Source: an uncultured Chloroflexia bacterium
Lineage (GTDB): Bacteria; Chloroflexota; Limnocylindria; QHBO01
Direction of reading: 5' to 3'
Assembly: GCA_963825525.1 (NCBI GenBank)
Contig: CAWGTN010000002.1
Span: 1,824,001 to 1,888,000, forward strand
DNA length: 64,000 nucleotides
Shown: positions 37,777-48,122 of the stretch, in pieces
How positions within the stretch are numbered: position 1 is the stretch's first letter
Layout: each line of letters starts with the position of its first letter
The notes under the pieces: generated by a model
Databases searched by the model: none
The model's input: the letters and a program-made list of their open reading frames with translations, nothing else
What the model was told of the DNA's origin: nothing
Translations under genes and position numbers: made by a program

Positions 37777-38199
37777 TCAGGTCGAAGCGATGAGCCAGTC
37801 GATGGCTTCGAGGTAGCCGCGCCAGCCGCGGCCGATGACCTGGTGCGCGGTGGCGGGGGCCGTCACCGAGACCCGGCGCCAGGGCTCACGGGCGGTGATG
37901 TCGCTGATGTGGACCTCGACGGCCGGGCGACCCGATCCGCGCAGGGCGTCGTGGAGCGCATACGAGGTATGCGACAGCGCGCCGAAGTTGCAGATGACGG
38001 CGTCGTAGTCGAGCTGCTCGAGCCGATCGATGAGCGCGCCCTCGTGGTTCGATTGGAACGCATCGAGCAGGGAGCCGCGCTCCAGCGCATGGGCGCGCGC
38101 CGACTCCACGATCTCCTCGAGGGTGGTCGTACCGTAGATCTCCGGCTCGCGGCGCCCGAGCGTGCCGAGGTTCGGGCCGTTGAGGACCAGGATCTTCAT
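37777..38199 (-). CDS. aroQ: Type II 3-dehydroquinate dehydratase
   Basis: LNGPNLGTLGRREPEIYG, QSNHEG, EVHIS. Confidence 0.93.
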   Translation of the reverse strand: MKILVLNGPNLGTLGRREPEIYGTTTLEEIVESARAHALERGSLLDAFQSNHEGALIDRLEQLDYDAVICNFGALSHTSYALHDALRGSGRPAVEVHISDITAREPWRRVSVTAPATAHQVIGRGWRGYLEAIDWLIAST

Positions 38200-38203
38200 C
38201 GGC

Positions 38204-39059
38204 TCATTCTCCTCCGGCCACGCCGAACGAGCCCAGCACCCGCATCGAGCTGGTGTGCTGACGCAGCCCCGGCAGGGCCGATGCGAGTGGATCCGACGCG
38301 GCGTCGCCGGAGACCTGGACCAGGAATCGATACCGCCACGGCCCGCTGCCCGACGGCCGAGACTCGATGCGGCTGAGGTTGATCCCCGCGTCGGCGAGCG
38401 AGCCCAGCGCGCGGTACAGGTCGCCAGGCGTGTGGCCCGTCTCGAAGGTGATGAGCGTCTCCCGCGCGGCGTCCTCCGCCGGTGCGAGGGAGCCCGCGGC
38501 TTCGATCTGGCCGCCGTCATCGCGCCGAAGAACGGCGAAGCGCGTCATGTTGTGGGCGGCATCCTGGATGTCCGTCGCCGCGATCTCGAGCCCGTAGCGC
38601 TCGGCAGCGCGGGCCGATGCGATGGCCGCCGGAGCCGCGCTCGCCGCTCGCCGCCAGCTCCCGGGCCGCTCCCGCGGTGTCGGCCGCCGGGACGACATCC
38701 CAACCACGGTCGGAGAGGAAGCGCTCGCATTGCGAGAGTGCCTGCCAGTGGCTGCTCACCCTCCGGATCGCCCCGATCTCGACGCCCGGCAGGACGAGCA
38801 GCTGATGACGGATCGGCAGCAGCAGCTCACCGACCACGCGCAGCTCTCCATCGGCGAGCGCATCGAGCGCGTCGCCGACGGTGCCGGCCAGCGAGTTCTC
38901 GAGTGGCAGGACGCCGGCATCGGTCGTTCCATCCTCGACGGCGCCGCACACCGCCGAGAAGGTCGGCATCGGCATCGGCGTGGCGTCATCACCGAACCAG
39001 CCGACGACCGCCTCCTCGCCGAAGGCTCCCGGCTCGCCCTGGTAGGCCACCGTGGTCAT
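38204..39059 (-). CDS. pheA: Prephenate dehydratase (frameshift near 38630)
   Basis: AYQGEPGAF, PLENS, SHWQALSQC, NMTRF, NLSRIESRP. Confidence 0.9.
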
Positions 39060-40626
39060 GCGGCGATCGTCCGCAGCCCGAGCGTCGATCTCGGCGTCGG
39101 TGACGTCGTCCACCTCGCTCACCCGGCCGATCTCCATCGGCAGGATCCAGCGCTGGCGGCCGGCGTGGCGCTTCTTGTCGCCGAGCATGGCCGCGCGGAC
39201 GGCCGCCGGGTCGAACGTCCGGCGCAGTGCGAAGCCCAGCCCGTCGAGCAGCGAGTCAAGGCGATCCGCGAGCTGCGGATCCCCGCCACGGCCGGCGGCG
39301 ATGGCAGCCACCGCCCGCAGCCCGAGGGCGACGGCGGCGCCGTGCGAGAGCCCATAGCCGGACTCGATCTCGACGCCGTGGCCGATGGTGTGGCCCAGGT
39401 TCAGCGTGCGACGCTCGCCATCCTCGTACGGGTCGCGGTCGCACACGCCGAGCTTCAGGCGCGCGCTGCGCTCGATGATCGCGAAGCGAGCCGGCTCGTC
39501 GGTACGAAGGGCCGCCGCCCCCCGGTCCTCGATGAGCCGCCACAGCGCCGGATCGCCGATGAGCGACGACTTCACCGATTCCGCCATGCCGTCCCGGCGC
39601 TGGCCGATCGGCAGCGAGCGCAACGTCGCCACGTCCGAGATCACCGCGACCGGCGGCCAGAACGCGCCGACCGCGTTCTTCGCATCGCCAAGGTCGACCG
39701 CCACCTTGCCGCCGATGGCGCTGTCGGCCTGCGCCAGCCACGTGGTCGGCACCTGGATGAGCGGGATGCCGCGGGCATACAGCGCGGCCGCGGTCCCGGC
39801 GAGGTCGCCGATGGTTCCGCCGCCGACCGCCAGGAGGGGCACTCGAGCGCTCCACGCGATGCTTCACCAGCCACTCGAGGATGCGCTCCAGGGAACCGAT
39901 GCGTTTCGCACGCTCCCCACCCCGGATCGGGAGCATGGTTCGCGTTCCGAGCTGCCTGACGAGGCCCGGGAGCAGGTCCAGCAGCCGCCGATCCAGGACG
40001 ACCACGCCGTCCGGGACATCGTCGAGCTCCACGCCCATGACCACGCGGGCCATTGGCGCACCCATCGGGTGATGACGCGGGACTTCGGCGTCGAGCAGGC
40101 GGCGGGCCGACGTGACCCGCATACCGTTCATGACCTCGGTCGCCAGCGAATCAGGCGTTCCGCCCGCCTCGATGCGGAGGTCGGCGGCCCGATAGACGGC
40201 CGATCGACTGGCCAGGACCGCTGACGTCCGTTCGGTCGAGTACGGCTGGAGGGTGGGGCGTGCAACGCCGTCGGATCGCAGGCGCTCGTTCAGCCGTTCG
40301 GGGTCCAGGTCGAGCCATGCCACCGTGCCGTGCTGCCACAGCGCCCATCGGTTGAGGGGGTCCAGCGCGGCGCCACCGCCGGTCGAGATGATGGCGCCCG
40401 GCGTGGCGCATGCCTCGCGCACAGCCTCGGACTCCTCGACGCGGAACGCGGCCTCGCCGTGCCGTTCGATGTACGCGGGCACGGGCATGCCGATCCGTCG
40501 CTCGGCGAGCTCATCGGTGTCGAGATGGGGGACGCCCAGCCGCTGCGCCACGAGCTGGCCGACGGTCGACTTTCCGCTGCCCGGCATGCCGACCAGGACG
40601 ATGCCCGAGCGGTCCGGCTCAGACAT
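39056..40626 (-). CDS. aroKB: Bifunctional shikimate kinase / 3-dehydroquinate synthase (frameshifted)
   Basis: GMPGSGKST, GEAAFR, STGGG, then GGGTIGD, PTTWLAQADSAIGGK, LNLGHTIGH. Confidence 0.85.
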
Positions 40627-41380
40627 CGGCCCCGGGACCCAGCTCCGTCCGCAGTGCGGCTCGCATGGCATCGATGGGCGCTTCGCGCTCGGCCCAGATC
40701 GAGAAGCTGAGCGCTGCCTGACGCAGCAGCATGCCCGCGCCGCCCCGGGCTCGGGCACCGATCTCGCGGGCGTCTCGCACCAGGCGTGACGGACTCGGCC
40801 GATACACGAGGTCGAGCACGGCCATCTCGCGTCGCAGGAGCGCAGCCGGCACAGGGGTCTCGTCGGCATCGGTGCCGATCGGCGTCGCGTTGATCAGCAG
40901 ATCCGCGGTCACCAGCGCCCCGGGCAGGCTCGCCCAGCGCGAGCGGTCGAGGACCAGGATCTCGTGGCAGCCCTCGGCGCGAAGCGCATCGGCGGCGGCG
41001 CGAGAGGCGCCACCAGCACCCAGGATCACGGCTCGGCGAATTCCCGGCGGCAGCTCACCGCGCAGGGCGGCGAGGTCGGTGTTGTGGGCCACCAGCCGGT
41101 CGTCATAGCGGACGATCGTGTTCGCCGCCCCCAGGCGCTTCACCTCGGGACCGAGCTCGTCGACCAGCGCGCAGACCGCCATCTTGTATGGCTTCGTGAC
41201 GTTGGCGCCGATGCGGTCGCCGGCCCGCAGCGCGGCCACCTCATCGGCGAGCTCGTGCGGCTCGACGTCGCGCAGCTCGTAGCGGGCATCGGCCCCGATC
41301 GCGTCGAACGCGGCGTTGTGCATCGCGGGCGACGCGGAGTAGCCGATGCCCTGGCCGAGCAGGACCGCCAGCGCCGTCAC
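40619..41380 (-). CDS. aroE: Shikimate dehydrogenase
   Basis: SASPAMHN, NVTKPYK, ANT, HNTD, GAGGA, DLVY. Confidence 0.9.
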   Translation of the reverse strand: MTALAVLLGQGIGYSASPAMHNAAFDAIGADARYELRDVEPHELADEVAALRAGDRIGANVTKPYKMAVCALVDELGPEVKRLGAANTIVRYDDRLVAHNTDLAALRGELPPGIRRAVILGAGGASRAAADALRAEGCHEILVLDRSRWASLPGALVTADLLINATPIGTDADETPVPAALLRREMAVLDLVYRPSPSRLVRDAREIGARARGGAGMLLRQAALSFSIWAEREAPIDAMRAALRTELGPGADV

Positions 41381-42576
41381 GCCGTGGAGCCCGGGCCGCG
41401 CGTGCGGCGACGGCGGCGGGACACGGCGGCCCGCAGATCGCCGATCGTGTCACCACCGAAGGAGTAGAGCAGCTCGTCGGCCAGGACCAGGGCCACCATC
41501 GCCTCGCCCACGATCGCCGCGCGCGGCAGGACGGTGACGTCACTGCGCTCGATGTGCGCGCGGCCGCTCTGGCCGGTCGTCATGTCGAGTGAGGGGAGCG
41601 GGGTCCGGAGCGTGGAGACCGGCTTCTGGGCGACACGGACCACGATCGGCTCGCCATTGCTGATGCCGCCCTCGATGCCCCCGGCGCGGTTCGTCCGGCG
41701 ATCCCAGCCGGAGCCCGCAGCGTCGACCACGTCATGGACGGTGCTCCCACGACGATCGACCGTGCCGAATCCGAGCCCGATCTCCACGCCCTTCACTCCC
41801 GGGATCGCCATCGTGGCGCCGGCCAGCAGGCCGTCGAGACGCGTGTCCCACTCGGACGACGAGCCCAGGCCGATCGGGGTGCCTTCGACCACGACCACGA
41901 ACGAGCCGCCGATCGAGTCGCCGGCCTCCTTTGCCGCGTCCACCTCGGCCAGCATGGCGCGCTCCGCTTCCGGGTCCGGGCAGCGGAGCGGGGAGGGATC
42001 GGCCAGGTCGCGATCGGCCCAGCCGTCGGGAATGGCGGCCAGGACGTCATCGGCGTCGGGAAAGGCCCGGATCGGCCCGAGCTGGTCCACGAAGCTCCAG
42101 ATGCGCACGCCGCAGGTGAGGAGCAACTGGCGCGCCAGCGAGCCAGCCACGACCCGCGGGGTGGTCGACCGTGCGGAGGCCCGCTCGAGCACGTTTCGGA
42201 CGTCGTCGGTGTCGTACTTCAGGGCGCCGGCCAGGTCGATGTGCCCGGGTCTGGCACGGGTGATCGCCTTCGGGCGTCGGGCAGCCGGGATCGGCTCCAC
42301 CGACATCCGGTCCAGCCAGTTGGCCCAGTCGCGGTTCTCGATGCTGAACCCGACCGGGGAGCCGAGCGTCCGCCCGTATCGGATGCCGGCGGTCCACTGC
42401 ACGCGATCCCGCTCGATCTGCATCCGCTTCCCGCTGCCGTAGCCGTGCTGGCGCCGCCGCAGGTCAAGGTCGACACCGCGCGTGCTGACCCGCATCCCGG
42501 CCGGCAGCCCCTCGAGAATGCCGGATAGCCCGGGGCCGTGCGACTCGCCACTGGTCAGCAGGCGCAGGCGGCGCAT
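41377..42576 (-). CDS. aroC: Chorismate synthase
   Basis: GESHG, RPGH.D, ERASAR, GGIEGGISNG, ERSD. Confidence 0.95.
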   Translation of the reverse strand: MRRLRLLTSGESHGPGLSGILEGLPAGMRVSTRGVDLDLRRRQHGYGSGKRMQIERDRVQWTAGIRYGRTLGSPVGFSIENRDWANWLDRMSVEPIPAARRPKAITRARPGHIDLAGALKYDTDDVRNVLERASARSTTPRVVAGSLARQLLLTCGVRIWSFVDQLGPIRAFPDADDVLAAIPDGWADRDLADPSPLRCPDPEAERAMLAEVDAAKEAGDSIGGSFVVVVEGTPIGLGSSSEWDTRLDGLLAGATMAIPGVKGVEIGLGFGTVDRRGSTVHDVVDAAGSGWDRRTNRAGGIEGGISNGEPIVVRVAQKPVSTLRTPLPSLDMTTGQSGRAHIERSDVTVLPRAAIVGEAMVALVLADELLYSFGGDTIGDLRAAVSRRRRRTRGPGSTA

Positions 42577-43862
42577 CAGCTCGTCACCGTGGCCAGGTCG
42601 TCCCAGAACGTCGGGTACGAGACGGCGGCGCAGTCCGGGTCGTCGAGCGTGACCCCGGCCGCGATTCCGGTGACCGCCGCCACGGCGAACGCAATGGCGA
42701 TCCGATGATCGCCGTGGGTTCGGACCTCGGCCTCCGCCGGCGTGCCACGGCTCACCCGCCAGCCATTGTCCAGCTCCTCCACGTTGGCGCCGATGGCGCG
42801 CAGGCCCTCGACCACGGCGCCGATGCGATCGGTCTCCTTCACGCGCAGCTCGTCGGCGTCACGCAGCTCCGAGGGCTCCGCGACCGATGCCATGGCGATC
42901 GCCACCAGGGGCAGCTCGTCGATGAGCTCGGCCACCTGCGCGCCATGGATGGTCACCGCTTCGAGCGGCCGCCCGCCGCGAACCACGACCTCGCCGATCG
43001 GCTCCGGGCCAGCAACGTCGATGATCCGCGTCTCGATCTGCACGCCCATCCGCTGCAGCAGGCCGATGAGCGCGAGCCGGGTCGGATTGAGCCCAACGCG
43101 CTCCATGTGGATCTCGGCATCGGGGTGCAGCGCCGCCGCAACCAGCCATGCGGAGGCGGCCGATGGATCACCCGGCACCTCGAGCTCGAACGGGCGCGGT
43201 CGCGCCGGGCCGGTGAGCTCGGTGATGGCGCCCGCTCGTCGGATGGGGACGCCCATCCAGGCCAGCATGCGTTCGGTGTGGTCGCGGGTCGGCCCTGGCG
43301 TCTCGATACTGGTCTCGCCCGCCGCGCTCAGCCCCGCCAGGACACACGCGCCCAGCAGCTGGGCGCTCGCGACCGACAGCCGATGGGTGACGGCGCCCGG
43401 TGACGCACGTCCGACGATCGTGATCGGGGCATGGCCGTCGGTGGTGCTCACTTCCGCACCCGTCTGACGGAGGAGCTCGGCGACGCGCTCCATCGGCCGC
43501 GCGCGGAGCGATGCATCACCGTCGAGCGTGGCCCGCAGCGGCAGTCCGGCCAGCATGCCCGACAGCAGGCGCATGGTGGTGCCGGAGTTGCCGCAGTCGA
43601 GCGCCGCATGGCGCATCGGCCTACCGCGAACCTCCCAGCGATCCTCCGCGGCGAGCTGGATCTCGACACCCAGCTCGCGCAGGCAGCCAATGGTGCTCAG
43701 CACGTCGAGCCCGGGCGTCCGCATCGTCACCGTCGACGGGCCGCCGGAGAGCGCCGCGAAGATGAAGGCGCGGTGCGCTATCGACTTGTCGGGCGGCAGC
43801 GTCAAGGTTCCCCGAAGACGTGCCGCGGGAAGTATCGTCGGCGTGATCGATGCCGGCGTCAC
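42576..43862 (-). CDS. aroA: EPSP synthase
   Basis: [40 protein letters not shown]. Confidence 0.93.
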
Positions 43863-45202
43863 CGTGCGCTTCCGGCCGTGGCCGCTTCCGCTTCGGTCAC
43901 GGACTGGGCGTGGCGGCGCTGGACCGAGCGCGATGCGCGGAGCAGCGCGTCGAACACGAGCGTGAGCTCCACCGGCGTCATCGGGCCGGACGTGCCACCG
44001 GCGGCGCGCTCGAGAAGCGCCCGTTCCCGCCGCGGGTCGTGGCCATGCGCCCCCGGCGCGCGGCGTCGCTGGACCTCGAGAGCCAGGGCCGCCCGCTCCT
44101 GGACCATCTCGGCCAGCCGAGCGTCGAGGTCGTCGATCCGATCGCGCACGTCGTCGATTCCATCGGCCGCGGTCGAGGCGGCGGTCACCGCCTGGCTCTC
44201 CGGGGCGCGAACGAACTGGAGGCGCCGAAGCTCGTCCATCAGGCCGCCGAACTCGTCGAAGTTGAGGCTCTGGTCGCCGTCCGATCGGGCATTGGCCGGG
44301 TCCGGGTGGACCTCGATGATCAGCCCGTCCGCGCCGACTGCGGCGCCGGCCAGTGCCATCGGTCCAACGAGCGCGCGATGGCCCGTGCCGTGGCTGGGGT
44401 CGACGATGATCGGCAGGTGGGTCAGGCTCCGCAGAACGGGCACGGCTGACAGGTCGAGCGTGTTGCGCGTTGCCGTCTCGAACGTCCGGATGCCGCGCTC
44501 GCACAGGATCACGTTCGGGTTGCCGGCCGACAGGATGTACTCGGCGGCAAGCAGCCACTCCTCGATGGTCGCGCTGAGCCCACGCTTGAGCAGCACGGGG
44601 CGGCGGCTCTGGCCCACGGCCTTCAGGAGCACGAAGTTGTGCATGTTGCGCGCGCCGACCTGGAGGATGTCCACGTGCTCCTCGAAGATCGGCACGTCGG
44701 TCGAGTCGACGACCTCGCTGATGACCGGCAGACCGGTCGCCTCGCGCGCCTCGGCGAGCAGCTTGAGGGCGGGGAGACCGAGCCCCTGGAACGAGTACGG
44801 GGAGCTGCGCGGCTTGAAGGCGCCGCCGCGCAGGACGCGCGCGCCCTCGCGGGCAACGCAGCGGGCCGTTTCGAGCAGCTGGTCGCGGGACTCCACCGCG
44901 CACGGGCCGGCCATGACGACCAGCTCCTGGCCCAGCCCGATCTCCACGCCGTTGGCGCGGACCCTGGTGCGCTCACCGGGCTCCTGCATGCTCGCGAGCT
45001 TGTATGGCGAGCTGACCCGGATCACCTGGTCGACGCCCGGCAGCGTTCCGAGGTGGCTGATCCGCTCGACGTCGCCCACCACTCCGATGACGGTCCGCTC
45101 CTCGCCCTCGCTGAGGAAGGCTTCGAGGCCGTTCTCCTCGACGGTGCGTTTCACGCCGTCGATCTCTTCTCGCGTCGCCGTCGGACGCATCACCACGATC
45201 AT
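43859..45202 (-). CDS. aroF: DAHP synthase type I-beta with N-terminal ACT-like domain and C-terminal chorismate mutase domain
   Basis: MIVVM...ERTVIG; [24 protein letters not shown]; tail RDRIDDLD...ER...DPRRE...SRSVQ. Confidence 0.9.
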
Positions 45203-45262: not shown

Positions 45263-45296
45263 AAACAAAAAACGCAGGAGCTTGCGCTTCCTGCGT
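45263..45296 (-). terminator. Intrinsic terminator in the aro operon leader
   Basis: ACGCAGGAAGC-GCAA-GCTCCTGCGT followed by TTTTTGTTT. Confidence 0.85.
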
Positions 45297-45349
45297 CTGC
45301 GGGCACGAGTGCCTCTGCCGGCGAGATCTACTCGCCTGCCTCGTACCCG

Positions 45350-45376
45350 CTAGCCATAAAACCACATTGCGTTCAT
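45350..45376 (-). CDS. Putative aro operon leader peptide MNAMWFYG
   Basis: ATG AAC GCA ATG TGG TTT TAT GGC TAG between promoter and terminator. Confidence 0.75.
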   Translation of the reverse strand: MNAMWFYG

Positions 45377-45386
45377 TGGTCCGCGG

Positions 45387-45415
45387 ACTGTAGGCCGCGG
45401 CGTTCCGCGTGTCAA
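45387..45415 (-). promoter_or_regulatory. Sigma70-type promoter TTGACA-N17-TACAGT
   Basis: Near-consensus boxes and spacing. Confidence 0.8.
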
Positions 45416-46388: not shown

Positions 46389-46488
46389 TGCCGCGCCATG
46401 GTGACGGATCGGGTCAACCGGCGTGCTGGCGATACCTCGCCTTGACGCATGGAGCGCGACACACCTAGCATGCGGCTCCAACTTCAGA

Positions 46489-46738
46489 CGGCAACGACCG
46501 GGACGAGTAGCCGGTTGCACGGTCAGAAGAGCGAGCCGGGATGGTGGAAGCCGGCGTGACACGGCATCGGTGAATGGACCCGCGAGCCTCGCTCCGAATG
46601 GGCACGACGCCCGGTAGGCAGCGACGGGACCGGCCACCGTTACCATCGGCCTCGAACGAGCGCGGACCCGACCGGGTCCGAACCAAGGGTGGCACCGCGG
46701 AATAGAGCCTCCGTCCCTGATCCGGATGGAGGCTTTGT
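46489..46738 (+). ncRNA. T-box riboswitch, Trp specifier
   Basis: Stem I motifs (AGTAG, GGTGGAA, GAA-TGG specifier at 46575), T-box AAGGGTGGCACCGCG at 46685-46699, terminator 46704-46738; promoter TTGACG-N18-TAGCAT. Confidence 0.9.
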
Positions 46739-46760
46739 CGTACGCCACAGCAGGAACCCG

Positions 46761-48122
46761 ATGACCATCGCAACCCCGGCACGCGTCACCAGCATCGAGC
46801 TGGCCGCGGACACGCTGACTCCCGTCGCCGCCGCGCTGCGTCTCGGGTCGCGCTGCGCGTTCCTCCTCGAGAGCGTGGAGGGCGGCGCGCGCTACGGGCG
46901 CTACTCGATCGCCGGCGTCCATGGCCGGACCCTGGTGGTCCAGCCGGGCGATGGAGATCCGCTCGAGGTCCTGCGCGCCGAGCTCCCGGACGTCACCCCC
47001 TCGGTCGGCGACCCGGCCTTCCCACTCGCCTCGGGGGTCGGCTACCTCGCCTACGAGGCCACCTCCCACTGGGAGCGGCTGCCGTCGCCCTCGAGCGACC
47101 CGCTCGCCATGCCGGACGCGGTGTTCCACGTGCCGTCGTCGGTCATCGTCTTCGATCACCTTGCCCAGGTGGCCCGCGTCGCAACCCTGGACGGGCCCGG
47201 GGCCGATGAGCGCCTGGCCGATGTCGTGCGCGCGCTGGCAACGCCGGCCCAGGGCGAGGTGCCCGCGCCATTCGCTGCGGCCGTCGTGCCGGTCGAGACG
47301 GACCCGGCGGCACGGGCCGCCTACGAGCGCGGGGTGGCGCGGCTGGTTGACGAGATCCACGCCGGCGAGATGCTGCAGACCGTCCTGGCACGACGCTTCT
47401 CGGTGCCCACGGATCGCACCGCGCTCGACATCTACCGATCGCTGCGACGCGTCAACCCGTCGCCGTACCTGTACTACCTCGACCTTGCGGTGGTGTCGCC
47501 GGGCGCCGCGGTTGTCGGAGCCTCGCCCGAGCTGCTGGTCCGGGTGCGCGACGGTGATGTGGTCACTCGGCCCATTGCCGGCACCCGACGTCGCGACGAC
47601 GATCCGGCCGTCGACGCCGCGCTCGAGGCCGAGCTGCGAGTGGATCCGAAGGAGCTGGCGGAGCACGCCATGCTCGTGGACCTGGCCCGTAACGATGTCG
47701 GCCGGGTGGCGGCCGCCGGGAGCGTCGAGGTCACCATCCTTCGCGACGTCGAGCGCTACGCCCACGTCATGCACCTCGTGTCGGAGGTTCGCGGCCGATT
47801 GGCGGACCGCCTCGACGCATTCGATGCCGTCCGTTCCGTCTTCCCCGCCGGCACCGTGAGCGGTGCCCCGAAAGTGCGCGCCATGGAGGCCATCGCCGAG
47901 CTCGAAGGGGAGCGGCGCGGCCCGTACGGCGGCGCGGTCGGCTACTTCTCGCCCACCGACGTTGAATGTGCGATCACCATTCGCAGCGCCCTGATCCGCG
48001 ACGGGGTGGCGACGGTCCATGCCGGGGCCGGGATCGTGGCGGACTCGGTTCCGGATCGGGAGGCGGCCGAGGTGGCGGCCAAGGCGGCCTCGATGCTGGC
48101 GGCCATCGGCGGTCCATCGTGA
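46761..48122 (+). CDS. trpE: Anthranilate synthase component I
   Basis: FLLES, NPSPY, SPE, PIAGTR, EHAMLVDLARND, PAGTVSGAPK. Confidence 0.9.
   Translation: MTIATPARVTSIELAADTLTPVAAALRLGSRCAFLLESVEGGARYGRYSIAGVHGRTLVVQPGDGDPLEVLRAELPDVTPSVGDPAFPLASGVGYLAYEATSHWERLPSPSSDPLAMPDAVFHVPSSVIVFDHLAQVARVATLDGPGADERLADVVRALATPAQGEVPAPFAAAVVPVETDPAARAAYERGVARLVDEIHAGEMLQTVLARRFSVPTDRTALDIYRSLRRVNPSPYLYYLDLAVVSPGAAVVGASPELLVRVRDGDVVTRPIAGTRRRDDDPAVDAALEAELRVDPKELAEHAMLVDLARNDVGRVAAAGSVEVTILRDVERYAHVMHLVSEVRGRLADRLDAFDAVRSVFPAGTVSGAPKVRAMEAIAELEGERRGPYGGAVGYFSPTDVECAITIRSALIRDGVATVHAGAGIVADSVPDREAAEVAAKAASMLAAIGGPS

Follow-up and report, generated by a model that had tools for sequence, protein, structure and literature searches.

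The stretch of DNA analysed here, 64,000 nt in length and called the window below, belongs to a metagenome-assembled genome of four contigs and carries on its minus strand an operon of the shikimate pathway that begins with aroF and continues with aroA, aroC, aroE, aroK-aroB, pheA and aroQ (Table 1). A sigma-70-type promoter is followed by a very short open reading frame (ORF) encoding the peptide MNAMWFYG, by a helix termed P1 that encloses a smaller hairpin, P2, and by an intrinsic terminator. The promoter, the eight-codon ORF with its Trp-Phe-Tyr core, the hairpin pairing 45340-45350 with 45299-45309, the terminator and the aro operon behind them were all located on the minus strand exactly where the original prediction had placed them. 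The distance from the terminator to the ATG of aroF is only about 60 nt, which leaves no room for a separate aroF promoter, so the operon depends on transcription reading through the terminator.

Table 1 Positions of the leader elements and operon genes within the window
Feature	Position	Strand	Description or basis
Sigma-70-type promoter	45387..45415	minus	TTGACA (45415-45410), 17-nt spacer, TACAGT (45392-45387); 10/12 matches to consensus
Leader ORF MNAMWFYG with TAG stop	45350..45376	minus	Sequence reading
P1, 5' arm	45340..45350	minus	GCGGGUACGAG; opens with the G of the leader stop codon
P1, 3' arm	45299..45309	minus	CUCGUGCCCGC; fold
P2, hairpin within P1	45320..45336	minus	6 bp, GGCGAG-UAGAU-CUCGCC; fold
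Intrinsic terminator	45263..45298	minus	Stem 45298-45270 with GCAA loop and one bulged A; U6 at 45272-45267, then G UUU
aroF, first gene of the operon	43859..45202	minus	Pfam: ferredoxin-like domain, DAHP synthase I, chorismate mutase II
aroA, aroC, aroE, aroK-aroB, pheA, aroQ	37777..43858	minus	Pfam

Composition of the leader

Two promoter-like sites were found in a 2.2-kb region around the leader, against 0.1 ± 0.3 in 50 shuffled versions. The leader ORF consists of the codons ATG (45376-45374) AAC GCA ATG TGG TTT TAT GGC TAG (45352-45350), the aromatic ones being Trp at 45364-62, Phe at 45361-59 and Tyr at 45358-56. Its start codon lies 10 nt 3' of the -10 hexamer and has no Shine-Dalgarno sequence, which suggests that the mRNA is leaderless or nearly so. 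In the predicted fold, P1 is a helix of 11 bp joining G45350-G45340 with C45309-C45299, and the G of the stop codon takes part in its first pair. The terminator begins 0-1 nt past P1 and has a stability of about -18.8 kcal/mol. For the 180-nt leader as a whole, the minimum free energy is -77.1 kcal/mol (z = -3.07), and none of 200 shuffled sequences was as stable.

The scan for consensus terminators missed the terminator of the leader because its stem carries a bulged A, and a separate scan for hairpins with U-tracts lists it. This second scan returned 43 terminator-like sites, the leader terminator among them, on both strands of the whole 2.58-Mb genome, so that canonical intrinsic terminators appear to be rare in this organism and the one in the leader stands out. 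A strict genome scan for other leader-peptide attenuators (promoter, ATG-initiated ORF and terminator in succession) returned only the MNAMWFYG element. VVLVVIGR, the one candidate of a looser scan, was rejected as a leader peptide, being the C-terminus of a gene that is followed by the structured leader of greA. This greA leader lies outside the window (contig C1, about 109050-109200, plus strand) and consists of a structured stretch of ~110 nt that ends in a U-tract terminator directly before greA, with no leader peptide; a promoter-like site (TTGACT...TACAAT) precedes it.

As read from its sequence, the leader is a candidate ribosome-read aromatic leader peptide of the attenuator kind, i.e., a short ORF of end-product codons and a terminator before a structural gene: an ORF rich in such codons lies between promoter and gene, and an intrinsic terminator lies between this ORF and aroF. 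The proposal that a leader-peptide attenuator precedes the whole shikimate operon is thus supported. In public metatranscriptomes, nine runs each contained a small share of the 64,000-nt stretch. Assembled contigs of four RNA libraries span the leader from 45244/45272 to 45352/45367, though contigs give neither the ends, the strand nor the level of an RNA, and DNA may have been present in the libraries. Two contigs from two different studies stop at 45272, where the U-tract begins, with the same reservation that contig ends are not RNA ends.

Several features of the neighbouring genes were also recorded. The AroF protein of the window has three parts, namely an N-terminal ferredoxin-like regulatory domain, the DAHP synthase I domain and a C-terminal chorismate mutase II domain; in other families of the class, the AroF match stops near residue 330-350 and the chorismate mutase part is found as a separate weak match kilobases away. 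The aroB and pheA genes are each divided over two frames (at about 39840-39850 and about 38635-38645, respectively, minus strand), with the DHQ synthase and prephenate dehydratase profiles running on across the ORFs, and these splits are either assembly indels or genuine frameshifts. On the plus strand, a T-box leader (46485-46721) adjoins trpE (46689-48122); its score of 79.1 bits (E about 1e-16) is under the Rfam gathering score of 93, and the UGG that follows the conserved GAA in the alignment was taken as the Trp specifier. With a T-box before trpE, the trp branch has its own tRNA sensor beside the leader of the common pathway.

Conservation of the leader in Candidatus Limnocylindria

The class Candidatus Limnocylindria (Chloroflexota) was searched, in a sample of 151 genomes, with a covariance model of the leader built from 30 copies; 63 of the genomes contained the leader, each of them once. 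By family, the leader was present in 16 of 50 genomes of f1, 41 of 44 of f3 and five of six of f4, and in none of the 49 genomes of f2 or the single genome of f5. At the f2 locus that was read (L028), no leader was found upstream of aroF. The stop codon of the preceding ORF overlaps the aroF start there, and this arrangement implies that the f2 aroF operon is controlled further upstream or by other means. The comparisons below use 76 copies from 76 genomes. Since these loci were picked for holding a model match, the occurrence of such a match in 76/76 holds by construction. Three of the copies (L012, L053 and L075) are from genomes flagged as unpublished, as are two of the 63 genomes above, and every statement made below for all 76 copies holds for the other 73 as well; none of the conclusions depends solely on the flagged genomes.

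In every copy with downstream DNA read, the element stands directly before aroF. This constant position, together with the lack of room for a promoter of aroF itself, argues against an independent small RNA or small-protein gene that has its own terminator and is unrelated to aroF control. Such a gene might be suspected from the single Rfam match on the element, a full-length one to the family RF02502 (Atu_C8, a small RNA of Rhizobiales), with 34.4 bits and an E value of 1e-4 over 1.7 kb; but this match is under the gathering score of 50, no match was obtained at E <= 1 in the genome-wide search, and the same model gives sub-threshold matches in 9 of 14 control genomes. The full-text literature search on Atu_C8 returned nothing relevant, and we regard an independent gene as extremely improbable. 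None of the Rfam leader families matched the leader, even at E <= 10.

The reading frame of the leader is well preserved. All 20 loci of the same genus with at least 450 nt upstream of aroF read M-x-x-x-W-F-Y-(G/V)-stop (three further AroF loci ended early at contig ends); codons 2-4 vary freely in these leaders, W-F-Y is fixed, and TAT and TAC alternate. At six f3 loci, the leaders comprise 11-12 codons and are rich in F/Y (MERIFFFYRYPA and MTRFYWFTDPA are examples), and their UGA stop lies within the 5' arm of P1. An aromatic-rich ORF of 8-12 codons was found in all 76 copies of the class, so the conservation of the micro-ORF that the original prediction had proposed to check is borne out within the genus and beyond it. 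The lengths are 8 (24 copies), 9 (6), 11 (27) and 12 codons (19), which means that the ORF varies by whole codons and the start remains in frame with the conserved stop. The start is ATG in 71 copies and GTG in five, and the peptide occurs in 64 different versions. Over the same spans, the ORF frame contains 263 aromatic codons and the two alternative frames 77 and 24. Trp occurs in 39, Phe in 72 and Tyr in 75 of the 76 leader peptides, all three occur together in 35, and at least three aromatic residues are present in 69. A -35/-10 pair precedes 75 of the 76 copies, its -10 hexamer being 6-14 nt (mode 10) from the start codon, and the base 3' of the leader stop codon is C in 59.

Two further observations concern the codons themselves. 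Phe is encoded by TTT in 67 and by TTC in 56 cases, though the genomes are GC-rich, and TTT stands at a nearly fixed spot just before P1 in most copies. An AUG that overlaps the stop codon (AUGA) in f3 leaders was considered as a reinitiation signal and rejected as not universal, being absent in L100-L102, L105 and L106.

The helices are conserved together with the frame. In the alignment of the 76 copies, pairing is intact in 97.6% of the 1271 cells that make up P1 plus the terminator core, and seven pairs change on both sides. The covariation score was not reached in any of 500 shuffles and was far lower in every slid register; RNAalifold recovered the same helices and, in part, P2. Covariation of the stem, the second check proposed at the outset, was thus obtained as compensatory changes in P1 and the terminator, although the P1 signal comes mostly from one deep family split and so represents few independent events. 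Within the genus, compensatory changes in the P2 stem were seen in L007, L019 and L020. The P1/P2 domain has a median stability of -35.75 kcal/mol, with at least five pairs inside P1 in 76/76 copies, and the terminator one of -17.75 kcal/mol (range -13.9 to -22.4); U-rich tracts of 8-10 nt follow the terminator in 72 of 76.

The spacing of these elements is nearly fixed. Between P1 and the terminator, 0-4 nt are left unpaired in all 76 copies and 0-1 nt in 56 of them, in agreement with the earlier remark that the hairpin abuts the terminator and does not clearly overlap it. The distance from the end of the last core aromatic codon to P1 is 2-5 nt in 68 copies and 9-11 nt in the other eight; the stop codon begins 2 nt upstream of P1 in 30 copies and 7-11 nt within its 5' arm in 46. 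Near-invariant across the class are CGUGCC in the 3' arm of P1 and GCAG/CUGC in the core of the terminator, and the P2 loops vary (UAGAU, CAGAG, CAGCG, UGAU).

A conserved helix-in-helix domain located right before a terminator is also what a tug-of-war riboswitch would look like, and P1/P2 might on this ground be taken for a riboswitch or a protein-binding element, with the aromatic mini-ORF being incidental. This explanation is very unlikely. The loops and junctions of P1/P2 are variable, so no conserved pocket is evident, and no Rfam family reaches its threshold; the ORF is kept in 76/76 copies with respect to frame, length class and aromatic core, with a threefold in-frame excess of aromatic codons.

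Search for an antiterminator and possible read-outs of the leader

In its textbook form, leader-peptide attenuation is defined by hairpins that exclude one another. When ribosome positions at W, F, Y, G or the stop codon were masked in the leader, the terminator folded in every state. A duplex scan of the 76 copies gave the best upstream partner of the terminator 5' arm a median of -7.45 kcal/mol, with no common position. The same duplex test recovered, as a positive control, a conserved partner of ~ -11 kcal/mol located 1-10 nt past the stop codon in three leaders of Acidobacteriota (L127, L140 and L186). On these predictions, the Limnocylindria leaders truly lack a classical antiterminator overlapping the terminator, and the sharing of nucleotides between antiterminator and terminator that belongs to the definition of leader-peptide attenuators was not found in them.

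An overlapping antiterminator might still have been overlooked, if it involved weak or non-canonical pairing or a pseudoknot. In some truncated folds (five sequences were informative), weak pairing is seen between the aromatic codons, which are rich in pyrimidines, and the purine-rich terminator 5' arm; but a stalled ribosome would cover this pairing, which gives it the wrong logic. In the genus, the P2/P1 junction can mimic the terminator 5' arm and pair with the 3' arm at -11 to -17 kcal/mol; but it is absent in f3 and varies without compensation (AGAGG, GAAGG, GCAGG, ACAGG), the terminator 3' arm being invariant with no matching change. Pairing of the P2 loop with the terminator over 4 bp was a further weak candidate and was likewise rejected, for wrong logic or missing covariation. 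Given that the terminator wins in all masked folds, a classical attenuator of this hidden type is considered improbable.

The interpretation that we put forward is built on the directly observed anatomy, conservation, P1 and terminator covariation and fixed geometry of the leader, and on the absence of an overlapping antiterminator. We are evenly divided as to whether the leader is a ribosome-read attenuator of the aroF shikimate operon in which the read-out occurs by abutment rather than by overlap. We infer translation of the ORF, a signal given by ribosome stalling and suppression of the terminator by P1 in its folded state. Transcription would begin a few bases 5' of the ATG, and a ribosome would load on the near-leaderless ORF of, in the window, eight codons. 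With charged Trp-, Phe- and Tyr-tRNAs in ample supply, it would reach the stop codon and keep P1 open, since the stop lies at the foot of P1 here and inside the P1 5' arm in other families. With P1 open, the RNA upstream of the terminator would be loose, the hairpin would close fully in the polymerase, and transcription would end. If any of the aromatic codons were read slowly, the ribosome would wait just 5' of P1 and the P1/P2 domain would fold; ending 0-4 nt before the terminator stem, the folded domain would compete for room in the exit channel and stop the base of the terminator from closing, and the polymerase would continue into aroF.

A ribosome opens mRNA structure up to about 11 nt from the first base in its P site, and a C after the stop codon slows release in E. 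coli. A ribosome at an aromatic codon would consequently spare P1, and one at the stop codon would open the 5' arm and might linger there.

The suppression of a terminator by P1 is proposed by analogy with tug-of-war riboswitches, in which, according to the part of the preprint available to us, a structure abutting the terminator suppresses it and longer spacers restore termination (Bushhouse, Fu and Lucks, bioRxiv 2026, 10.64898/2026.06.17.733018). The natural ZTP riboswitches of this kind are described in that part as having spacers shorter than 5 nt and terminator stabilities below -15 kcal/mol. The leaders agree with both rules by their spacers of 0-4 nt and the median stability of their terminators, and for this reason a ribosome-operated tug-of-war is proposed. 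In this more specific form, i.e., a natural ribosome-run tug-of-war attenuator in which an overlap-free helix has its effect solely by adjoining the terminator at the RNA exit channel, the interpretation is held more tentatively and somewhat short of an even balance.

Several considerations stand against reading by abutment. The plain-hairpin controls in the available part of the preprint worked only on weak terminators, a plain upstream hairpin having little effect on stable ones (10.64898/2026.06.17.733018), and the leader terminators belong to the stable class, so that P1/P2 alone may not suffice. The ribosome must also hold the P1 5' arm until the polymerase has moved ~70-85 nt further, and no pause signal was found in the leader. 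Moreover, an untranslated leader would be constitutively ON, unlike classical attenuators, and the small number of independent events behind the P1 covariation weakens this part of the evidence.

The first and third of these objections would be avoided if the stalled ribosome itself were the block and P1 served as a rigid bridge from the mRNA entry of the ribosome to the terminator, folded P1 alone being insufficient. The feet of P1 lie at the ribosome entry and 0-4 nt from the terminator, so that closure of the terminator would require the ribosome and the polymerase to be in one place at once. The geometry fits, with aromatic codons 2-5 nt before P1 in 68/76 copies and a spacer of 0-4 nt in 76/76; the ribosome would supply the extra bulk that is needed if a simple hairpin barely affects strong terminators, as indicated in the accessible text of the preprint (10.64898/2026.06.17.733018); and the usual default, termination if the leader is untranslated, is kept. 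A ribosome at the first aromatic codon would be 8-16 nt from P1, though, and its contact with the helix would be looser. We know of no precedent for such a block, which is counted against it, and overall it is judged unlikely.

Alternatively, the ribosome may act as the sensor and the read-out may be of another kind, with a ribosome parked at the 5' end shielding read-through transcripts from 5' decay, or with a protein that distinguishes P1 in single-stranded form from folded P1. The position of the ORF at the extreme 5' end of the transcript is consistent with the former, and CGUGCC and GCAG/CUGC are near-invariant in the whole class beyond what pairing demands. But 5' protection explains neither the spacer of 0-4 nt nor the passage of the polymerase through a terminator of ~ -18 kcal/mol, and we attach little probability to this group of explanations.

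It is of interest that the sensor is kept class-wide, its helix standing in a constant register with the ORF and the stop codon, and that an overlapping antiterminator is missing; the switch probably works in an unusual way. If the abutment model is true, steric antitermination would extend beyond ligand-binding aptamers, overlap-free attenuation would be a general design of leader peptides, and attenuator searches that require overlapping folds would miss a whole class. It would also explain why eight codons, with one per aromatic amino acid, are sufficient. The leader would then be a compact part of 120 nt that could make any terminator responsive to the supply of aromatic amino acids. For the uncultured Limnocylindria, the model means that the entire common aromatic pathway would be controlled from one point, with the trp operon having its own T-box.

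Relation to known leaders and riboswitches

No publication on the Limnocylindria aroF leader was found in the literature searched, nor any on an overlap-free architecture in leader peptides. Enterobacterial trpL and pheL have runs of codons for a single amino acid in an ORF led by a Shine-Dalgarno sequence, and mutually exclusive 1:2, 2:3 and 3:4 pairings. The leader of the window shares with them (Rfam Trp_leader and Phe_leader) a promoter-proximal ORF of end-product codons followed by an intrinsic terminator, and differs in having one codon each for Trp, Phe and Tyr, no Shine-Dalgarno sequence and no exclusive pairings.

The aroR-aroF leader-peptide attenuator of Corynebacterium glutamicum was reportedly described by Neshat et al. 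in 2014. In the passages available from later sources, aroR is a leader ORF with Phe-Tyr-Phe located before aroF, at which stalling raises transcription of the operon (PMC11802643, PMC7356990; predicted in PMC4046766). The leader described here resembles it in the short mixed-aromatic ORF directly before the DAHP synthase gene aroF. The likeness to aroR, which belongs to another phylum, is one of description. As far as aroR is described in those passages, the leader of the window is unlike it in its eight codons, its near-leaderless start, the additional Trp codon, the control of the whole common pathway and the lack of an overlapping antiterminator. The hypothetical sensing of Trp, Phe and Tyr by one codon each, as in an OR gate, has to be considered in the light of aroR: according to the passage of a review, Phe limitation affected transcription there and Tyr availability was without effect.

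A further motif, uORFC-13-1, has been noted upstream of aroF in Acholeplasma (PMC8632094). As described in the portion of that source at hand, it belongs to low-GC Mollicutes and differs in having a ribosome-binding site, with only Phe being noted; here too the comparison is by description.

With respect to the tug-of-war riboswitches, the leader shares, on the evidence of the available text of the preprint, a stable structure with no nucleotides in common with the terminator (P1 and the terminator occupy separate alignment columns), a distance to it of less than 5 nt (in 76/76 copies) and a terminator below about -15 kcal/mol. In this last respect, the median is below the limit of about -15 to -16 kcal/mol, and a few copies are weaker than -15. 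The difference concerns the operator: a ligand stabilises the aptamer of the riboswitches, and in the leader of the window a ribosome would remove or spare the helix. Leader peptides have no mention in the part of the preprint available to us (10.64898/2026.06.17.733018).

Leaders rich in W/F/Y, of 17-25 codons and with terminators, were also encountered before aroF of the same type in other lineages, namely L127, L140 and L186 (Acidobacteriota), L116 (Calditrichota), L142 (Rokubacteria), L122 and L167. In the three Acidobacteriota leaders, an antiterminator strand, AGAGUGGCGUUG or CGAGUGGCGUUG, located 1-10 nt past the stop codon pairs with the terminator 5' arm, and these leaders thus show the classical overlap that the Limnocylindria leaders are without.

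The original prediction had also stated that no described example was known. In view of C. glutamicum aroR (PMC4046766, PMC11802643), the Acholeplasma aroF motif (PMC8632094), as far as the available parts of these sources describe them, and the mixed W/F/Y leaders of other phyla, this statement fails: mixed aromatic leaders before aroF are already known, and the Limnocylindria leader is not the first example. What is new in it, compared with these systems, is its extreme economy (eight codons, one each for Trp, Phe and Tyr, and leaderless), its conservation throughout the class and its overlap-free architecture.
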